Part shown: positions 1-64,000 of the stretch, in pieces
Position numbering within the stretch: position 1 is the first letter of the stretch
Layout: every line of letters starts with the position of its first letter
Assembly (NCBI RefSeq): GCF_964213995.1
Contig: NC_135804.1
Span: forward strand, 112,468,001-112,532,000
DNA from: Mustelus asterias
Taxonomy: Eukaryota
Reading direction: 5' to 3'
DNA length: 64,000 nucleotides
Notes under the pieces: model-generated
Databases searched by the model: none
Told to the model about the DNA's origin: nothing
What the model saw: only the letters and a program-made list of their open reading frames with translations
Position numbers and translations under genes: made by a program

Positions 1-936
1 AAGGTGTAACTGGGGTGATCAGTAAGTTTGCGGATGACACGAAAATGGCTGGACTTGCAGATAGTGAGGAACATTGTCAGAGGCTACAGAAGGATATAGA
101 TAGGCTGGAAATTTGGGCAAAGAAATGGCAGATGGAGTTCAATCCAGATAAATGCGAAGTGATGCATTTTGGTAGAACTAACGTAGGGGGGAGCTATACG
201 ATAAATGGCAGAACCATAAAGGGTGTAGATACGCAGAGGGATCTGGGTGTGCAAGTCCACAGATCCTTGAAGGTGACGTCACAGGTGGAGAAGGTAGTGA
301 ATAAGGCATATGGCATGCTTGCCTTTATAGGACGGGGCATAGAGTATAAAAGTTGGGGTCTGATGTTGCAGTTGTATAGAACGTTGGTTCGGCCGCATTT
401 GGAATACTGCGTCCAGTTCTGGTCGCCACACTACCAGAAGGACGTGGAGGCTTTAGAGAGAGTGCAGAGGAGGTTTACCAGGATGTTGCCTGGTATGGAG
501 GGGCTTAGTTATGAGGAGAGATTGGGTAAACTGGGGTTGTTCTCACTGGAAAGACGGAGGATGAGGGGTGACCTAATAGAGGTGTATAAAATTATGAAAG
601 GCATAGATAGGGTGAACAGTAGGAAGCTTTTTCCCAGATCGGTGGTTACGCTCACGAGGGGTCATAGGTTCAAGGTGAGGGCGGGGGAGGTTTAACACGG
701 ATATCAGAAGGACGTATTTTATACAGAGGGTGGTGGGGGCCTGGAATGCGCTGCCAGGCAAGGTGGTGGAGGCGGACACACTGGGAACGTTTAAGACTTA
801 TCTAGATAGCCACATGAACGGAGTGGGAATGGAGGGATACAAAAGAATGGTCTAGTTTGGACCAGGAAGTGGTGCGGGTTTGGAGGGCTGAAGGGCCTGT
901 TCCTGTGCTGTATTGTTCTTTGTTCTTTGTTCTTTG
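1..936 (+). mobile_element. CR1/HER1-type LINE, 3' part (RT C-terminus, 3' UTR, (TTCTTTG)n tail)
   Basis: ORF 15..695 has KFADDTK, WQMEFNPDKCEVMHFG and RPHLEYCVQFWSP motifs. Frameshift near 680-695, then a CR1 3' hairpin and a TTCTTTG tandem tail. Confidence 0.95.
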
Positions 937-1070
937 GTGGCTTGGTAATTGCTATTAATCATCTTGAAGAGACGCTTAGGGAGGAATCATCTGCTCCGGG
1001 ATGAGGTCCTGTGCAGGGGTGAGAGGTCCGAGGGATTCCTGCTGCAGAGTGTAGTGAGTAAACCTGTCAA

Positions 1071-1380
1071 ATCATAGAATCCCTACAGTGCAGGAGGCCA
1101 TTCGGCCCACCAAGTCTGTACCGATCATAATTCCACCCAGGCCCAATACCCGCCACCCCACACATTTATCCTGCTAATCCCCCTGACATTAGGGACAATC
1201 TAGCATGGGCAAACCACCTAACCTGCACATCTTTGGCGTGTGGGAGGAAACTGGAGCACCCGGAGGAAACCCACGCAGACACGGGGAGAAAGTGCAAACT
1301 TCACACAGACAGTGACGGAGACCAGAATTGAACCCAGTCCCTGACGCTTTGAATCAACAGTGCTAACCACCATGCCACCC
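1071..1380 (-). mobile_element. HE1-type tRNA-derived SINE with CR1-like tail
   Basis: Reverse complement has an A-box/B-box tRNA head, the conserved body GTGTCTGCGTGGGTTTCCTCCGGGTGCTCC and the tail GGCCGAATGGCCTCC..GATTCTATGAT. Confidence 0.9.
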
Positions 1381-1448
1381 CATGCAACATTCAAGTCATT
1401 AATTATGTAGCCGCGAGGTTCACGTTAAATCTTGTGGTGGCGGGTCGG

Positions 1449-1770
1449 GCAGGAAGTCGGCTACTGTCATGTTGCCATATCTGTAAGTCACCCAGATAGG
1501 CCTTCATTAATGGTATCAGAACCTTGGAAGAAGCATGCGTAGGAAAAGACAGCAGCCTCCCGCCCCCTGCTTCACCGATCCTCTCTGGATGATCTCCTCA
1601 AGAAAGGCAGAACATCCCCTTCCCCAGCGATGGCCATAGGAGGCTATGTCATCTCACCATGCCAGCGAAGGAGGAGGTTGCTAGTGTGGACAGTGTCTGT
1701 TGGGTCCAGAGGAGGACTATTCTGCAATGCAGGGAACAGGTCAATTATCTCAGGCACTCTGTGAGGGTAA
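1449..1770 (+). pseudogene. Decayed Myb/SANT-like (Harbinger-type) first exon with upstream motifs
   Basis: Fragments PCFTD..L..LL, PSDGHRRLCHLTMPAKEEVAS and RRTILQCREQVNYLRHSVR, followed by GTAAC. Aligns by eye with the copies at 14324 and 27272. Confidence 0.65.
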
Positions 1771-1862
1771 CTGAACCTTCTATTGATTGGGCTTACATTT
1801 ACATAAGATTATTTTCCTTTTGCATCTTTCAACTGCAAGGAATGTGAAGAGAATATAGGACT

Positions 1863-3948
1863 GATTTTGATTTGATTTATTATTGTCACGTGTATTAGTA
1901 TACAATGAAAAGTATTGATTCTTGCACGCTATACAGATAAAGCATACTGTTCATAAAGAAGGAAAGGGTGCGTAATGTAGTGTTACAGTCATAGCTAGGG
2001 TTTAGAGAAAGATCAACTTAATATAAGATAGGTCCATTCAAAAGCCTGATAGCAGCAGAGAAGAAACTGTTCTTGAGTTGGTTGGTACATGACCTCAGAC
2101 TTTTGTACCTTTTTCCTGATAGAAGAAACATAGAAACATAGAAAACTACAGCACAAAACAGGCCCTTCGGCCCCACAAGTTGTGCCGAAGATATCCCTAC
2201 CTTTTAGGCCTACCTATAACCCTCCATCCTATTAAGTCCCATGTACTCATCCAGGAGTCTCTTAAAAGACCCTATTGAGTTTGCCTCCACCACCACTGAC
2301 GGCAGCCGATTCCACTCGCCCACCAAGAAAGTATGTCCAGGATGCATGGGGTCCTAGATTATGTTGGCTGCTTTCCGAGGCAGTAGGAAGTGTAGAGAGT
2401 CAATGGATGGGAGGCTGGTTTGCGTGATGGGCTGGGCTTTGTTCAAAACACTGTAGTTTCTTGTGGTCTTGGTCAGAGCAGGAGCCAAACCAAGCTGTGA
2501 TACAACCAGAAAGAATGCTTTCTATGATGCATCTGTAAAAGTTGGGGAGACTGAATTTCCTTAGCCTCCTGAGAAAATGGAGGCATTGGTAGGTTTTCTT
2601 AACTATTGCGTCAGTGTGGAGGGACAAGGACAGATTGTTGGTGATCTGAGCACCTAGAAACTTGAAGCTCTCGACCATTTCCACTTCATCCCCATTGATG
2701 TAGAGAGGGGCATGTCCTCCACTGTGCCTCCTGAAGTCGATGACTATCTCCTTCATTTTACTGATATTGAAGGAGAGATTATTGTCACCGCACCAATTCA
2801 CCAGATTCTCTATCTCTTTCCTGTACTCCATCTCATCATTGTTTGAGATCTGACCCACGATGGTGGTGTCATCAGCAAACTTGAAAATCGAGTTGGAGGG
2901 GAATTTGGTCACACAGTCATAGGTGTATAAGGAGCATAATAAGGGGCTGAGAACACAGCCTTGTGGGGCATCAGTGTTGAGGATAATTATGGAAGGGGTG
3001 TTGTTGCCTATTCTTACTGATTCTGGTCTGTGGGCTAGGAAGTTCAGAGAGAGGAGCTGAGCCCTAGGCCATGGAGTTTGGAGATGTGTTTTGTAGGCAT
3101 AATGGTGTTGTAGGCTGAGCTGTAGTCAATAAATGGGTGTATGAAATAAGTGTCCTTGTTATCCAGGTGTTCCAGGTTTGAGTGTAGGGCCAGGGAGATG
3201 GCATCTGCTGTGGACCTGTTGTGGCAATAGGCGAACTGTGATGGATCCAGGCAATCTAGGAGGCCAGAATTGATTCGTGTCATGACTAAACTTTTGAAAC
3301 ACTTCATAATGATTGAAGTCAGAGCCACCAGGCGATAGTCATTAAGGCATGCTGCCTGGCTTTTCTTTGGGACAGGGATGGTGGTCGCCTTTAGGTAGGA
3401 ACCTCAGATCGGTAAAGGAGAAGTTAAAGATGTCTGCGTATACCCCCACCAGCTGGTCCGCGCAGGATCTGAGAGCTCGTCCGGGTACCCCATCCAGGCC
3501 AGTCGCTTTCTGTGGCTTGACTTTCAAGAAGGCTGATCTGAGGTCTGCGATGGTGACCTCGGATACTGGTTCAGCCGAGGCTTCAGGGGTCGAAGACGTG
3601 CTCTCGCTGACCTTTTGCTCAATACAGGCATAGAATATGTTGAGCTCATTGGGGAGGGGTGCATTGTGCCGGCGATTCTACATACCTTCATCTTGTAGCC
3701 TGTTATGTCTTGTAGACCCTGCCATAATCAGTGGGAGTCTGTGTGGATAGCTTGGGACTCTAGTTTGGCCCGGTACTGTCTCTTGACAGCTTTGACGGTT
3801 CTCCATAGATCGTATCTGGATTTCTTGTATAGGTCAGGGTCACCTGACTTGAACGCCTCAGACCTGGACTTCAGCAAGCAGTGGATATCTTTGTTCATCC
3901 ATGGTTTCTGGTTGGGAAACACATGGATTTGCTTCTTTGGCGCACAGT
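1863..3948 (-). mobile_element. Rex1/Babar-type LINE, 5'-truncated and degenerate
   Basis: ORF pieces [71 protein letters not shown]. Tail GTGACAATAATAAATCAAATCAAAATCA. Confidence 0.9.
2125..2325 (-). mobile_element. Short CR1 3' end nested in the Rex1 element
   Basis: (AGAAACAT)n tail and ACAGGCCCTTCGGCCC hairpin interrupt the Rex1 sequence. Confidence 0.8.
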
Positions 3949-3961
3949 CACTGTGTCACTG

Positions 3962-4265
3962 CGACGGTGGCACAGTGGCACAGTAGCACTGCTGCCTCAC
4001 AGCACCAGGGACTCGGGTTCAATTCCTGGCTTGGTCACTGTGTGGAGTCTGCCTGTTCTCTCCGTGTCTGTATGCATTTTCTTCAGGTGCTCTGGTTTCC
4101 TCCCACAGTCCGAAAGACGTGTTGGTTAGGTGCAATGGCCATCCTAAATTCTCCCTCTGTGTACATGAACAGGCGCCGGAGTGTGACAACTAAGGGATTT
4201 TCACAGTAACTTCATTGCAGTGTTAATGTAAGTCTACTCATGACACTAATAAATAAACTTTAAAG
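3962..4265 (+). mobile_element. HE1-head SINE with Rex1-like tail
   Basis: tRNA head, HE1 body and tail TTCACAGTAACTTCATTGCAGTGTTAATGTAAG..GACACTAATAAATAAAC. Flanked by a near-TSD, ACTGTGTCACTG / ACTGTATCACTG. Confidence 0.9.
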
Positions 4266-5068: not shown

Positions 5069-5681
5069 GAGGGGCAGCAGGTTATGGGGAATGGGAGCAG
5101 GTTGGAGGATAGGGAGTGGGAGAGGCAGCAGGTTGGAGGGATGGGAGTTGGAGAGGCAGCAGGCTGGAGGGATGTGGAGTGGGAAAGGCAGCAGGCTGGA
5201 GGGATGTGGAGTGGGAAAGGCAGCAGGTTGGAGGGATGGGGAGTGGGAGAGGCAGCGGCTGAAGGGACGGGGAGTGGGAGAGGTATCTGGTTGGAGGGAT
5301 GGGAGTGGGAGATGCAGCAGGTTGAGGGATGGGGAGTGGGAGAGGCAGCAGGCTGGAGGGATGGGGAGTGGGAGAGGCAGGAGGCTGGAGGGATGGAGAG
5401 TGGGAGAGGCAGCGGCTGAAGGGACGGGGAGTGGGAGAGGCAGCAGGCTGTAGGGATGGGGAGTGGGAGAGGCAGCAGGTGGGAGGGACGGGGAGTGGGA
5501 GATGCAGCAGGTGGGAGGGATGGGGAGTGGGAGATGCAGCAGGTTGGAGGGATGGGGAGTGGGAGAGGTATCTGGTTGGAGGGATGGGGAGTGGGAGAGT
5601 CAGCAGGCTGGAGAGACGGGGAGTGGGAGAGGCAGGAGGCTGGAGGGATGTGGAGTCGGAGGTATCAGGATGGAGGGATGG
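5069..5681 (+). repeat. Purine-rich ~31-bp minisatellite
   Basis: About 20 imperfect copies of GGGAGTGGGAGAGGCAGCAGG(T/C)TGGAGGGATG. It produces the spurious overlapping ORFs at 4860-5794. Confidence 0.95.
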
Positions 5682-5699
5682 TGAGCAGGGATGTAGAAA

Positions 5700-19443: not shown

Positions 19444-19766
19444 TGAGATGGAGATGCCGGTGTTGGACTGGGCACAGTGAGAAGTCGCACAACACCAGGT
19501 TAAAGTCAAAAAGGTTTATTTGGAATCACAAACTTTCGGAGTGCTTCATCAGGTGAGTGGAGGTAGATTCACAAACACGGCATATATAGGCAAAGACACA
19601 ATTGCAAGATAATTACAGACTGGAATTGGATAGAGCTCTGATGAAGAATCATCTCGACTCAAAACGTTGGCTCTATTCTCTCCCCACAGGTGCTGTCAGG
19701 CCTGCTGAGATTTTCCAGCATTTTCTGTTTTTGTTTCAGATTCCAGGAAACGCAGTATTTTGCTTT
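19444..19766. mobile_element. Penelope-like terminal fragments in inverted arrangement, with hammerhead-like motif
   Basis: GGAGATGCCGG..CAACACCAGGTTAAAGTC start; AGAGCT CTGATGA..GACTC AAAA CGTT GGCTCT at ~19632-19673. Confidence 0.75.
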
Positions 19767-28400: not shown

Positions 28401-30140
28401 CTCAGAGACACTCAGGTGGCTATTCAAGGTGACTCACTCCTCTTTGCCCTTCATACACTCCATGCCAACCTATGGCACCTCCATTCCCATATACCCAATA
28501 TACACTATGTACAGAATCAATGAATCCTATAGTAAAAATGGCATGTGGGCATAAACTTTAATAAACTGTAATTCATTACTTTCTTCAGCTTATACTGCAG
28601 CCCCATAAACGTGTCAATTGTCTCAACAGTTAAAATATCAGTAGTAGAAACTAGAAGCATTACTTCATCTTGTATAAATAAACATTGTGTAATTGATGAA
28701 ATAGAACTAAAAAAGAAAGAGCTGTCAATCAAGCAATGTTTTCCCTTGGGTTCAGCTGTTTCAACAGACTAATGGATGTCTGGGCTCTCAGCCAGGAATA
28801 TATAATGAGGCTTGCAATGAACAATAAAGAATTAACTGCTCATTCTGCAAGAAAAGGCAAAGGATTAGAGCACAGCACAGAATCCCAACTTTCTGATCTT
28901 GCTATATTATCAGAGCTTCTAAACTAATCACAGATGTCTTCAGTACATGATCCCAGTTAAATTGAGAGATCAACTCCAGCACAAGTTAGTATATCAAGAT
29001 GGAAAGGGAACAAAGAGAGCATAGATAGCATGGACATGGAACTGGCATGATAGGAAAAAAAATGACCAAATCAGACAAGAGATAAACAAGATAGCAATGA
29101 GATGTAGGGATGAAGTGGAAGAACAGATAAGAGAGTTCCATGAGCCCTGTGCAGCCTGTAGTGAAACTAGTATCAACAGTATGAAAGCAGCACTCTTACT
29201 GAGGTACAAGGTAAATGAGCTGCCATGTAGTCAATTATTGTGTTCAGAAACAGGAACCAAAAATAGTAACACTGAGCAGCAGGTGCAAAGGTATAGCTGA
29301 TGTTTTATTTGTAACTGAGTGGTGGAGTGTAATATTGTACCCAACATAAAGCACTTGTCTCCTTACTGTGGTAATTTGAAAATAATTGCACTGAAGATAT
29401 TATTTTTCTTGCATCGAGTCTTGCAATATCCAGCAATAACTATTTCAGTTTTAGGAGATTGCAAAGCAATTTGATTTGCAAGACTTCATTTGCCTCTCAT
29501 AGTTAGGAATGAAAGAACAAGCGAGGGAACTGGAAAAGAAATAAAAGGTTAGAAGTGCAGGTGTGCGTGGGTGGAGATTTCATCATGGTTGACAGTTTAC
29601 CATTGGGACAGTTCACTTTAATGAGAAAGCCTCAGTAATCAGGATAAGAGGGAATGTTACCTCCAGCATTGTAGCTCATTACAGACCTGTACTGCGCTCT
29701 CCGTCTCAACTACAGCACCAGTATTTGCTGGCCTTTAGGTACGCCTTTCATAGGCATCTAGCATGTTCAAATTGAGACTGTAAGTAAATATATTCTACTG
29801 ACTTCCTTCATAATCCCCCTTACATGCCAGCCTAGAAGACTGGTGAAAGCCTACCAAAAGCTTCTAACAAGCGGCTAACTCCTGAATAGCTCTAATTATT
29901 GGTCTAGGGTGTATAAAGATGATCTACGGTGTGAAGACAGTGGGCTAGACTGGAGGGCAGTGGGAAATGAGCTTGTCATAACCTAAGATATATGTTGGCA
30001 CAGTTAGCAGCCCTGGTGATTTAGAAATTACTGAAAAGGGAATTTGGTACTAAAAGCGTGAGAAATATTTTTTATGGGCATGCCTCAAGAATTTTATTTG
30101 TGACAACTGTTCTAGTGAACTTACTGGCATTTTCAAAGCC

Positions 30141-30613
30141 GGTAAGAGTTTTAACAACACCAGGTTAAAGTCCAACAGGTTTATTTGGTAGCAAATACCA
30201 TTTGCTTTCGGAGCACTGCTCCTTCGTCAGATGGAGTAGAAATCCACTCCATCTGATGAAGGAGCAGCGCTCCAAAAGCTAATGGTAGTTGCTACCAAAT
30301 AAACCTGTTGGAGTAGAAATCCACTCCATCTGATGAAGGAGCAGCGCTCCAAAAGCTAATGGTAGTTGCTACCAAATAAACCTGTTGGAGTAGAAATCCA
30401 CTCCATCTGATGAAGGAGCAGCGCTCCAAAAGCTAATGGTAGTTGCTACCAAATAAACCTGTTGGAGTAGAAATCCACTCCATCTGATGAAGGAGCAGCG
30501 CTCCAAAAGCTAATGGTAGTTGCTACCAAATAAACCTGTTGGACTTTAACCTGGTGTTGTTAAAACTCTTACTGTGTTCACCCCAGTTCACCCCAACGCC
30601 GGCATCTCCACAT
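30141..30613. mobile_element. Palindromic Penelope-derived mini-element with 13-bp TSD
   Basis: TSD CATTTTCAAAGCC at 30128-30140 and 30614-30626; inverted arms GTAAGAGTTTTAACAACACCAGGTTAAAGTCCAACAGGTTTATTTGGTAGCAA. Confidence 0.9.
30235..30542 (+). repeat. Four identical 77-bp tandem units, each with a hammerhead-like core
   Basis: Units start at 30235, 30312, 30389 and 30466; each contains CCAT CTGATGA A GGAGC AGC GCTCC AAAA GCTA ATGG. Confidence 0.95.
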
Positions 30614-30996
30614 CATTTTCAAAGCCCACAGTAACTCTGAGTGTGAATCTCAACATTGTTAAAATTAAAAATCATACTCACTTTCCAATCCTCTACTCAC
30701 TATTTTCTTTCTAAACAATAGCAATTTCATAAGTGACAGGAATTGTCGATAAAATATATATATATTTAGAGCTAATGCACTTAGATCATAAAATATCCAC
30801 TTCCTCTAAAGAAACAAACACTCAACATGGATGGAAATAAATTTCACAGAAAGCAACAGCTGGGAATGCCCCAGATATGTTCATTCGAAAAAAATGTATT
30901 TTAGAAGCTGTATTTTAGTCATTTATTGTATATGATTTATTGGACACAAACATCCAAAGTACAAGTTTAGGGATCAATAGATGCCCCCTCCCAAAA

Positions 30997-55887: not shown

Positions 55888-56125
55888 CTTTTTATCCTAG
55901 ATCTAACAGCCTAGCTGAACGAATTATTTACACAGTGAAATCCCTCATTCTCAAATGTAGAAAGAACAAGTAAAATCTACACATTGTAATGTTACATCTG
56001 GAAGTGACACCTTTAAGATTCAGTAATGTCAACGAGGGATGAGATGTTGCCTGAGTGAGATTGGGACTGAATGAGTATATTTGAGGATTTAGTTCAAAGT
56101 GGGAATTCGGTGTATAGGGAGAAAG

Positions 56126-56742
56126 ACATCTCACAACACCAGGTTAAAGTCCAACAGTTTTATTTGGTGGCACGAGCGCTTTCGGAGCGCTGCTCCATCA
56201 TCAGGTGAGTGGAGAGTTGGGTTCACAAACAGAGCATACATAGATACAGACTTAATTGCAAGATAATGGTTGGAAAGCGAGTTTTAATAGGTGATCAAGT
56301 CTTTACAGGTACAGACAATGCGAGTGGAGAGAGGGATAATCACAGGTTAAAGAGGTGTGAATTGTCTCAAGCCAGGACAGTTAGTTGGATTTTGCAAGCC
56401 CAAGCCAAATGGTGGGGGTTACACGTCGTGTGACATGAACATGAACATGCAGAATCGCCGAGCAGAAGCTGATAGCCAGGTTCTGCACACATGAGGATGG
56501 CCTCAACTTGGGGTTCATGTCACACTACGTGTAACCCCTACCTTGTTTCTGCGGCTTTGACTCATCTTTCATTCCCTCACCCTGCAGTATAAATATCTCC
56601 CACTTGCTATGCCTTTTAGCTTTGACAAAGGGCATCAGGACTCGAAATGTCAGCTCTTTTCTCTTTTTATAGATACTGAGATTTTCCAGCATTTTTTCTC
56701 TTTTGGTTTCAGATTCCAGCATCCGCAGTCATTTGCTTTTAT
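56126..56742. mobile_element. Penelope-like insertion: inverted terminal part plus GIY-YIG C-terminus and 3' end
   Basis: RIAEQKLIARFCTHEDGLN remnant at ~56450-56534; hammerhead motifs at 56171-56207 (-) and 56618-56655 (+). Confidence 0.85.
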
Positions 56743-57244: not shown

Positions 57245-57725
57245 TGATGTGGAGATGCCGTGCTTGGGTGATGTTCGGGGCTGTCTTGTGAGTGCGGCTA
57301 ATTCGGGTAAGCGTTCTCCAAGGCGGCCTTCGCGACACACGATGGCGCAGAGTCGCTGAGCAGAAACTGATAGCCAAGTTCTGCACACACGAGGACGGCC
57401 TCAACTGGGATATTGGGTTCATGTCCCACTATTTGTAACCCCCACAGAGTTTCACTGGCTGTCTTGTCTGGAGACAATACACATCTTTTTAGCCTGTCTT
57501 GATGCTCTCTCCACTCATGTTGTTTTGTTTCTTAAAGACTTGATTAGTTGTAAGTATTCGCATTCCAACCATTATTCATGTAAATTGAGTTTGTGTCGTT
57601 ATATGCTCTGTTTGTGAACAGAATTCCCACTCACCTGAAGAAGGGGCTGGCAGCTCCGAAAGCTTGTGTGGCTTTTGCTACCAAATAAACCTGTTGGACT
57701 TTAACCTGGTGTTGTTAAACTTCTT
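57245..57725 (+). mobile_element. Penelope-like insertion with 12-bp TSD
   Basis: TSD ACCATACAGGAA at 57233-57244 and 57726-57737; endonuclease tail RRVAEQKLIAKFCTHEDGLNWDIGFMSHYL*. Confidence 0.92.
57632..57668 (+). ncRNA. Minimal type I hammerhead ribozyme motif with intact core
   Basis: CAC CTGAAGA A GGGGCT GGC AGCTCC GAAA GCTT GTG: stem I CAC/GTG, 6-bp stem II, palindromic AAGCTT stem III. Confidence 0.7.
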
Positions 57726-58343
57726 ACCATACAGGAAGCCATTCAAGCTGGGGGAGTAACAAGGAATGTAGTGGTAACAGGGAACAGTGCAGTCAGAGGG
57801 ATTGACACTGTTCTGTGCAGCAGAGTCCAAACAGCCATGTTGCTTACCTGATACCAGAGTTCAGGACATCCGCTCAGGGCTGGAGAGGAACATGCGGTGG
57901 GAGGGAGAGGACCCAACCATCATGTTTATGTACATAGCAATGACATGGGCAGGACAAAGGACATTTACATTGTCAATATGAAGAGCTTGGTACCAAATTT
58001 AGCAGAATTTCAAAGGTCATAATTTCTTGGTTATTGCCTGAGCCACATGCAGATTGGTATAGGCCCTATCAGATTATGGAAATGAATGCATGCCTCAAAG
58101 ACTGGTTTGGGAGAAGTGGGTTCCAGTTCATGGGCACTGGCACACCAGTACTGAGGAAGGTGGAGCTGTACCGCTGGGACAGTGCCCACCTGAACTGTCC
58201 TGGGACTGGTGTTCTCACGAGCCACATAAATAGAGAACTGGATCAATTTTAAAACTTTTGGAAGATGTGGTAAATCAAACATAAAGACCAGGCAAAAGAG
58301 AAAGGTATTTATACAAGAAATGAAAAACAGGCCGTAACAGCAA

Positions 58344-58560
58344 TGATGTGGAGGTGCTGGTGTTGTACTGGGGTAAGCACAGTAAGAAGTCTCACAACAC
58401 CAGGTTAAAGTCCAACAGGTTTGATAGGTCCAACAGGATTATTTGGAATCACAAGCTTTCGGAGTGCTGCTCCACTCATCTGAGGAAGGAGCAGCGCTCC
58501 AAAAGCTCGTGATTCCAACTAAACCTGTTGGACTTTAACCTGGTGTTGAGAGACTCCTTA
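58344..58560. mobile_element. Palindromic Penelope-derived mini-element
   Basis: Same architecture as 30141; degenerate 12-bp TSD CCGTAACAGCAA / CCGAAACAGGAA. Confidence 0.85.
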
Positions 58561-62659: not shown

Positions 62660-64000
62660 ATTCTGGCAGGTAAGATGAGGGAGAATTACAAGACATTCTA
62701 TAAGTATATAAAGGAAAGAGGATAGCCAGGGAAAGAGTAGAGCTCATTCAGGACCAAGGAGGCAATCTGTGCGTGGAGCCAGAGGACATTGTTCGGCTGT
62801 TAAACTAATACTTCACATCTGTCTTCATTTAGGAGAAGGAGGACATAGATACAGAATTTGGAGAGAGGGACTATGAGGTTCTTGAACAGTTTGACATAGG
62901 GAGTGAGGGGGTATTGGAGGATTTGGCAAGTTTAAAAGTGGACAAATCCCCAGGTCTGGGTGAGTTGTATCCCAAGCTGCTGTGGGAGGCAAGGGAGGAA
63001 ATTACAGAGGCTCTGACCCAAATTTTCAATTCCTCTCTGGCCATGGGGGTACCCAGTCCAACGCCGGCATCTCCACATCGTGGGGTACATGCCAGAGAAC
63101 TGTAGGACAGTTAATGTGGTTCCACCTTCAAGAAGGGTGGTAGAGATAAACCAGGGAACTACAGACCACGTAGTCTCACATCAGTGGTAGGGAAACTACT
63201 GGAGAAAATTCTGAAGGAGAAAATGAATCTCCAATTGGAGGGGTAAGGTTTGATCAGGGATAGTCAACTCGGCTTTGTCAGGGAAAGGTCAACTTAATAA
63301 TTTTTCAAGGAGGTGATCGGGTGTGTTGATGAGGATAGTGTAGCCAATGTAGTTTATATGGATTTCAGCAAATCCTTTGACAAGGTCCCATATGGGAGAT
63401 TGATAAAGATAAAAACACATAGGTTCCAGGGTAACTTGGCAAGATGGATCCAAAACTAGCGTAGTGGTAGGAAACAGAGGCTGGTAGAAGGCTGTTTATG
63501 TAACTGGAGGCCAGTAACTGGAGGCAGCTGGAATACTGTGTGCAGTATTGGTCCCCTTATTTGCGGAAGGATATATTGGCCTTGGAGGGAGTGCAGAGCA
63601 GGTTCACCAGGTTGATATCAGAGATGAGGGGTGTTGACTATGAGGAGAGACTGAGCAGATTGGGTTTGTATTCGTTGGAATTTAGAAGGCTGAGGGAGGA
63701 TCTTATGGAGACCTATAAGATAATGAAGGGGCTGGATAGGGTAGAGATGGAGAGATTCTTTCCACTTAGAAAGGAAACTAGAACTAGAGGGCACAGCCTC
63801 AAAATAAAGGGGGGTCAGTTTAGGACAGAGTTGAGGAGGAACTTCTTCTCTCAGAGGGTGGTGAATCTCTGGAATTCTCTGCCCACTGAAGTGGTGGAGG
63901 CTACCTCGTTGAATATGTTTAAATCACGGATAGATGGATTCCTGATCGGTAAGGGAATTAGGGATTATAGGGATCAGGCGGGTAAGTGGAACTGATCCAC
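62660..64000 (+). mobile_element. CR1 ORF2 fragments (internal deletion or chimera at ~63525)
   Basis: LKVDKSPGLGELYPKLL and DFSKSFDKVP, then ORF 63540..63995 encoding the CR1 C-terminus. Confidence 0.92.

Follow-up and report, generated by a model that had tools for sequence, protein, structure and literature searches.

The perfect 4 × 77-bp hammerhead array carried by a 473-bp insert in Mustelus asterias is best read, with a probability of about 0.8, as a locus-private duplication within a head-to-head stub of a Penelope-like element (PLE) end, likely expanded in genomic DNA after a likely inactivation of the hammerhead. The array resembles a minisatellite born inside a PLE stub, and the insert is a member of the truncated-PLE class.

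In the proposed course of events, the reverse transcriptase (RT) of the element would have copied only the last 100–140 nt on both sides of a staggered cut, and so left a right arm with the tail, an inverted left arm without it and 13 bp of duplicated target (step 1). Each arm then took up three mutations separately from the other, and those of the right arm include the CpG-type decay of G12 (step 2). During replication or repair a strand would have slipped back between two TGGA motifs, from 30540 to 30232, probably assisted by the fold-back hairpin, giving two units (step 3), and more slippage or unequal exchange would have raised these to four (step 4). Such units would not self-cleave, with G12 lost and stem I predicted to be sequestered. 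The architecture of step 1 is observed directly and its mechanism is drawn from published PLE work; step 2 follows from family comparison; steps 3 and 4 are what we infer from these, and the role of the hairpin is suggested by three loci picked after the fact.

Anatomy of the insert

Within the window, the 64,000-nt stretch of DNA that was analysed, the insert occupies positions 30141–30613 and is bounded by identical 13-mers at 30128–30140 and 30614–30626. Its features are as follows (+, forward strand; −, reverse strand).

30128–30140 (+): left copy of the 13-bp target-site duplication; contigs of two relatives stop fitting exactly at 30140
30141–30240 (−): inverted left arm, a short pseudo-LTR copy that ends at the proximal CTTAC end, without tail
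30232–30251 (no strand): fold-back tip, axis 30241/30242, present in each tandem unit
30232–30543 (+): perfect 4 × 77-bp array; units start at 30232, 30309, 30386 and 30463; TGGA microhomology at 30540–30543
30249–30285 (+): minimal type I hammerhead in the first unit, with further copies at +77, +154 and +231; core from 30253, predicted cut after 30281
30540–30572 (+): distal portion of the right arm, which shows no difference from the left arm
30573–30613 (+): one-sided Penelope ‘tail’ of 41 nt, lengthened by a private 5-bp duplication from the family length of about 36 nt
30614–30626 (+): right copy of the target-site duplication, whose first 3 bases also fit the family tail

The assembly sequence bears out the anatomy given in a preliminary description of this DNA: a 473-bp insert, a 13-bp target-site duplication, inverted arms and four identical 77-bp units. 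The first three bases of the right target copy (CAT) are those that end the family tail, which makes the boundary ambiguous by 3 nt, and the tail variant with the 5-bp duplication is unique in the genome by pattern search. Both the 13-bp target-site duplication and the inverted 5′-truncated copy with its one-sided tail are what insertions of EN+ Penelope-like elements display. Compared over 30142–30240 with the last unit and the sequence downstream of it, the left arm matches at 93/99 sites and differs at 6. All six differences fall in the 46 bp nearest the centre; three of them are CpG sites, and CpG sites lie only in those 46 bp. The left-arm hammerhead core (30224–30230) keeps G12 and GAAA, U16.1 has become A at 30203, and a further private change lies at 30238.

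The period-77 array comprises 4.05 copies in the assembly sequence, with 100% matches and a 4-bp TGGA overhang. Its units start about 10 nt inside the left arm, so that each includes the fold-back tip, and the array ends about 31 nt past the predicted hammerhead cut. In unit 1, N7 has changed from C to T (30257) and G12 to A (30274), with a private T>G change just downstream of the hammerhead at 30288; core position 12 is A in all four units (30274, 30351, 30428 and 30505). The earlier statement that every unit carries G12A, while the opposite arm keeps GAAA and has lost the cleavage-site U, is therefore confirmed.

The hammerhead call is based on pattern, family conservation and the published minimal consensus. 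The family state has the consensus architecture as set out in PMC4209133 (stems I and II, bulge, palindromic 15.2–16.2), which supports the earlier assignment to minimal type I hammerheads with a palindromic A-GC-U stem III. An Rfam scan gave no hammerhead family match, its six matches at E ≤ 10 being weak and unrelated; in all pattern searches of the genome the reversed control pattern had 0 matches, so the motif matches are not due to chance. With the minimal hammerheads of metazoan PLEs, as described by Cervera and De la Pena (2014, PMC4209133), the motif shares a short stem I, an extra nucleotide between A9 and G10.1, the G10.1–C11.1 pair, palindromic 15.2–16.2 and opposite-strand pairs that lie close together; it differs in G12A in four units, U16.1A in the inverted copy and a 5-bp stem II.

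Elsewhere in the window, four more ends of related Penelope subfamilies are found at 19449–19523, 56120–56213, 57623–57728 and 58346–58548, the last being another fold-back with a tail and a 12-bp internal duplication. A piece of about 30 bp at 63051–63079 consists of Penelope tail only, flanked by a short imperfect repeat, and a purine-rich 32-bp minisatellite (18.7 copies, 86% matches) spans 5096–5685. An ORF listing, as distinct from an exon search, gave 34 open reading frames (ORFs) of at least 130 aa in the window, among which no host gene was recognised; they are retroelement or low-complexity pieces.

Parent Penelope-like family

A 28-letter hammerhead pattern matched the genome 54,141 times (control, 0), and a search with the last 140 bp of the insert returned 1,046 candidates, the best 92–95% identical among the 40 scored. 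At three loci (L045, L050 and L052) an ORF with RT and a GIY-YIG-like motif, on the same strand, stops about 200 nt before the same hammerhead end, in agreement with the Penelope-like origin proposed earlier. The end sequence is thus continuous with an RT + GIY-YIG ORF, as in EN+ Penelope-like elements, with Pfam matches that fall below the curated cut-offs: those of L052 are weak (RVT_1, E = 3e-5; GIY-YIG, E = 1e-3), and none of four ORF pieces from L045 and L050 had a Pfam match. A Cys-rich linker between RT and the GIY-YIG-like motif of the parent ORF suggests the Neptune/Nematis type, and by its anatomy the ORF appears Neptune-like. Upstream of the Penelope end lie what we take to be envelope-like proviral open frames in L050 (about 1800–3300) and, presumably, gag/pol frames of an LTR element in L046 (about 570–4030).

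In an unselected subfamily sample of 30 hits (28 elements), an inverted arm is present within 1.5 kb of 14, with fold-back spacers of 21–1240 nt and arm divergence of 1–6%; the 6% of our insert lies at the top of this range. Since the spacer differs from copy to copy, fold-backs are made anew at each insertion, and the ‘mini-element’ of the preliminary description does not hold as a family. The A at position 12 occurs in 1/30 and 11/100 ordinary family copies.

For EN+ PLEs, Craig et al. (2021, PMC8557442) describe inverted truncated copies with a one-sided 30–40 bp tail, and Frangieh et al. (2024, PMC11167929) mapped in vitro two RT start sites that delimit this tail. The insert resembles the complex insertions described in these two sources in its 5′ truncation, adjacent inverted copy, one-sided tail and hammerhead in the pseudo-LTR, as well as in the RT, Cys-rich linker and GIY-YIG make-up of the parent ORF, and its two fixed ends match the two published start sites, the left arm at the proximal end and the right arm with the tail. 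Unlike the insertions described there, it retains no ORF and contains an internal, axis-crossing 77-bp unit four times over.

Order of events

Relative to the family state, the right side of the insert has two CpG changes, the T>G change and the unique 5-bp tail duplication; another three changes are confined to the left arm. Every unit carries the three right-side substitutions, G12A among them, together with the private base of the left arm at 30238. Comparison of adjacent units over 235 positions gives 0 differences, whereas the arms differ at 6/99; four unchanged units would have a chance of 8e-5 at the arms’ rate and of 0.009 at half that rate. Because all units share the decay mutations while the arms differ at 6/99 sites, the array likely grew after the decay, as had been proposed from the TGGA microhomology and the inactive core. 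On the sequence comparisons, the simplest order would be insertion, decay, duplication at the TGGA microhomology and expansion.

Contigs of two related species (X1 and X5), with 14 and 35 differences over 641 bp, stop fitting at 30140 and run on. They behave like an empty site at the left flank, and the two species appear to lack the insert. The flank differs by only 2.2% from one relative without the insert, leaving limited time for six arm changes; this, like the clustering of all six in 46 bp, speaks against the order of decay before expansion. Contigs of run X14, an independent assembly of reads that may come from the assembly’s own sample, show 0 differences over 29500–30168, spanning the left boundary into the left arm; those of run X16 leave this boundary uncovered.

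The same observations bear on a different order, in which the array was written at insertion: a single RNA that was already mutated would have been primed anew by RT three times, a second RNA would have supplied the left arm, and the insertion would be too young for divergence. Arms from two RNAs, and hence a very recent insertion, could occur, since chimeric insertions that join different subfamilies exist (L067, L069, L096 and L098); the absence of the insert from two relatives would fit, the units of most other short tandems seem no younger than the insertion that holds them, and L068, L079 and L088 are very young arrays in which units and arms are identical. However, the assembly holds no source copy with the right-arm haplotype or the tail variant, the arms of young fold-backs share rare variants, which points to one template, and the units contain 10 bases continuous with the left arm along with its private base, although these 10 bases could also be read as mutated upstream sequence of the family. 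GTAGTT was considered as a subfamily marker, which would imply two templates, and rejected: the T>G variant recurs in only 9 other copies, and 9,249 have the family state. We consider writing at insertion quite unlikely.

It is very unlikely that the extra units are an assembly artefact and that the true locus has one or another number of units. Such an error would be favoured by perfect identity beside a long palindrome, since assemblers are known to have difficulty with structures of this kind (PMC8557442), and among the listed read-assembly contigs, whose depths at this point sum thousands of family copies, no piece crosses the 77-bp junction. Yet the junction is a specific microhomology join, unlike a simple collapse or expansion, dozens of loci hold similar arrays whose units have diverged, and the left boundary is confirmed in X14.

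Privacy of the 77-bp unit

A pattern for the junction matched three times at the 77-bp array and once at an unrelated locus, L034; the latter was rejected as a second copy, being a target-site coincidence in another subfamily. The full mutated hammerhead, searched as an exact pattern, occurs genome-wide only in these four units. A mobile 77-mer was rejected, as junction and mutated hammerhead are confined to one locus, and neither the exact patterns nor 48 similarity-search rows revealed a second tandem locus to which the same unit had dispersed.

The preliminary description had also entertained a very small retrozyme-like array. Tandem non-coding units, each with one type I hammerhead and of PLE pseudo-LTR origin, are indeed the mark of metazoan non-LTR retrozymes as Cervera and de la Pena describe them (2020, PMC7229834). 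Our array differs in its 77-nt unit, against a typical 150–450 bp, and in its single locus (PMC7229834; bioRxiv 10.64898/2026.07.22.740005). None of the four units has an intact catalytic core, nor has the left arm (U16.1A). The array therefore lacks the two or more consecutive complete hammerheads that characterize non-LTR retrozymes, and its broken core falls outside the definition by two consecutive complete motifs used in the preprint of Li, Clavereau and Pollet (2026, bioRxiv 10.64898/2026.07.22.740005). The same preprint reports retrozyme arrays in one chondrichthyan and proposes post-insertion local amplification of a PLE end as a route to such arrays. With the junction at one locus and the mutated hammerhead in these four units only, the retrozyme reading of the 77-nt unit is not supported. 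That the unit is a very small non-LTR retrozyme, copied from circular RNA through rolling-circle reverse transcription and losing its activity afterwards, is highly unlikely. One hammerhead per unit, a target duplication of this length and the derivation from a PLE pseudo-LTR agree with the descriptions (PMC7229834; bioRxiv 10.64898/2026.07.22.740005) and published consensus lengths reach down to 51 bp (bioRxiv 10.64898/2026.07.22.740005), but a single locus holds the unit, a G12A common to 4/4 units would not result from independent later decay, and each unit holds a locus-specific fold-back tip predicted to block stem I.

Folding and predicted activity

G12 is the general base of the hammerhead (PMC6155905), and its change to A therefore likely stops cleavage. 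When two units are folded as one transcript, the opening base of stem I is predicted to find its partner 15 nt upstream, within the tip hairpin (p 0.82). The probability of stem I is about 0 in the 77-nt units, against 0.98–0.99 in an intact 59-nt array (L073). The tip hairpin is thus predicted to take the 5′ strand of stem I, as a second block on cleavage. Together with G12A, this predicted block favours the probable inactivity that had been suspected from the sequence. The dimer fold is geometrically possible and lies far above the minimum for both units (−17.7 versus −48.7 kcal/mol for 77 nt; −18.2 versus −37.6 kcal/mol for 59 nt); a read-through transcript of the insert is predicted to fold into one long hairpin (−242.7 kcal/mol). 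According to the published accounts, cleavage by minimal hammerheads is weak even in dimeric or trimeric form (PMC4209133), those of PLEs depend on the protein of the element and insertion in vitro can do without them (PMC11167929), and 8/9 Xenopus dimers gave no cleavage (bioRxiv 10.64898/2026.07.22.740005).

Hammerhead tandems elsewhere in the genome

Two hammerheads in close succession were matched 51, 50 and 98 times by patterns that allowed gaps of 0–24, 25–55 and 56–95 nt, respectively; the controls had 0 matches. Those of the 56–95-nt class, inspected by eye only, are mostly partial pseudo-LTR tandems. The short gap classes yielded 77 distinct loci, L097 being left out as a segmental duplicate of L096. 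At least two near-complete cores are present at 60 loci (45 with two units, 15 with 3–15), and the 17/77 without them were set aside; periods range from 26 to 89 nt, and an inverted arm accompanies 46. Tandem hammerheads are thus a by-product, on the order of 0.1–0.3% of motifs, a lower bound given the exact patterns. The preliminary description had made the choice between a retrozyme and a one-off duplication depend on other tandem loci; these do exist, but their units differ and so lend the 77-mer no retrozyme status.

Leaving aside 15/60 loci without an arm or a uniform period, unit divergence at the other 45 averages 5.4% and correlates with arm divergence (6.8%; Spearman 0.51, p 3.5e-4), a relation suggesting that most tandems form at insertion. 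By the same comparison of unit and arm divergence, the 77-bp locus is the strongest outlier among these 45. L076 closely resembles it, with a tip-spanning unit, the private base of the left arm in the junction and shared CpG changes; L110 weakly shows the same tip-spanning pattern. Identical units with arms at least 5% apart were seen by eye at 3/5 tip-spanning loci and 1/40 others (Fisher p 0.003, a post hoc comparison of few loci). About 8/76 loci, judged by eye, end within 1–2 nt of the cut and more end at +4/+5, with GTGA microhomology; automatic offsets were unreliable, the reference set being incomplete.

Among 70 spacer strings only one, from a 38-nt unit, is common to two loci. This unit recurs with the same or a near-same junction at four loci (L064, L087, L109 and L138), by either convergent microhomology or mobilisation of the unit; at L064 (C7:38052593-38052779) at least 13 × 38 nt are present, with independent decay. 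At six loci (L042, L062, L068, L071, L079 and L082) the second units seem to start with an extra G, 14–24 nt before the core and at two or three fixed points, which is possibly a capped RNA 5′ end.

Several other arrays stand out. A young fold-back at G000:C10:62280475-62280648 (L040, L073) carries 4 × 59-nt units with three cores fully intact and stem I predicted; by these predictions it would be the best natural candidate for cis-dimer cleavage. A 3 × 69 nt array at C16:62546003 also has intact cores. At G000:C18:29433260-29433448 (L083), an 8 × 32-nt array without an inverted arm alternates between variants, forming a 64-nt higher-order unit; its units end at the predicted cut and lack the 3′ strand of stem I. 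At G000:C70:4660333-4660734 (L143), 15 × 45 nt keep G12 in 15/15 units and include a block of identical units.

From these loci a wider proposal can be framed, which we hold to be unlikely: fold-back stubs would be a nursery for ultra-short hammerhead arrays, through two distinct routes, re-priming at insertion and later tip-spanning duplication, and the intact 59-, 69- and 32-nt arrays would be newborn retrozymes with their own dimer partner, releasing 32–69-nt RNAs, with the 77-mer stillborn.

Implications

The 77-bp locus is likely local repeat DNA in a stub of a very common Penelope-like element and not a new mobile ribozyme element. It offers a dated example of how a perfect tandem hammerhead array can arise without ribozyme activity, and a caution for pipelines that call retrozymes from a tandem repeat and a motif. 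The side lead lies in the intact short arrays elsewhere in the genome, and the census supplies natural constructs of two to fifteen units that bear on cis-dimer cleavage and on the origin of retrozymes from pseudo-LTRs.
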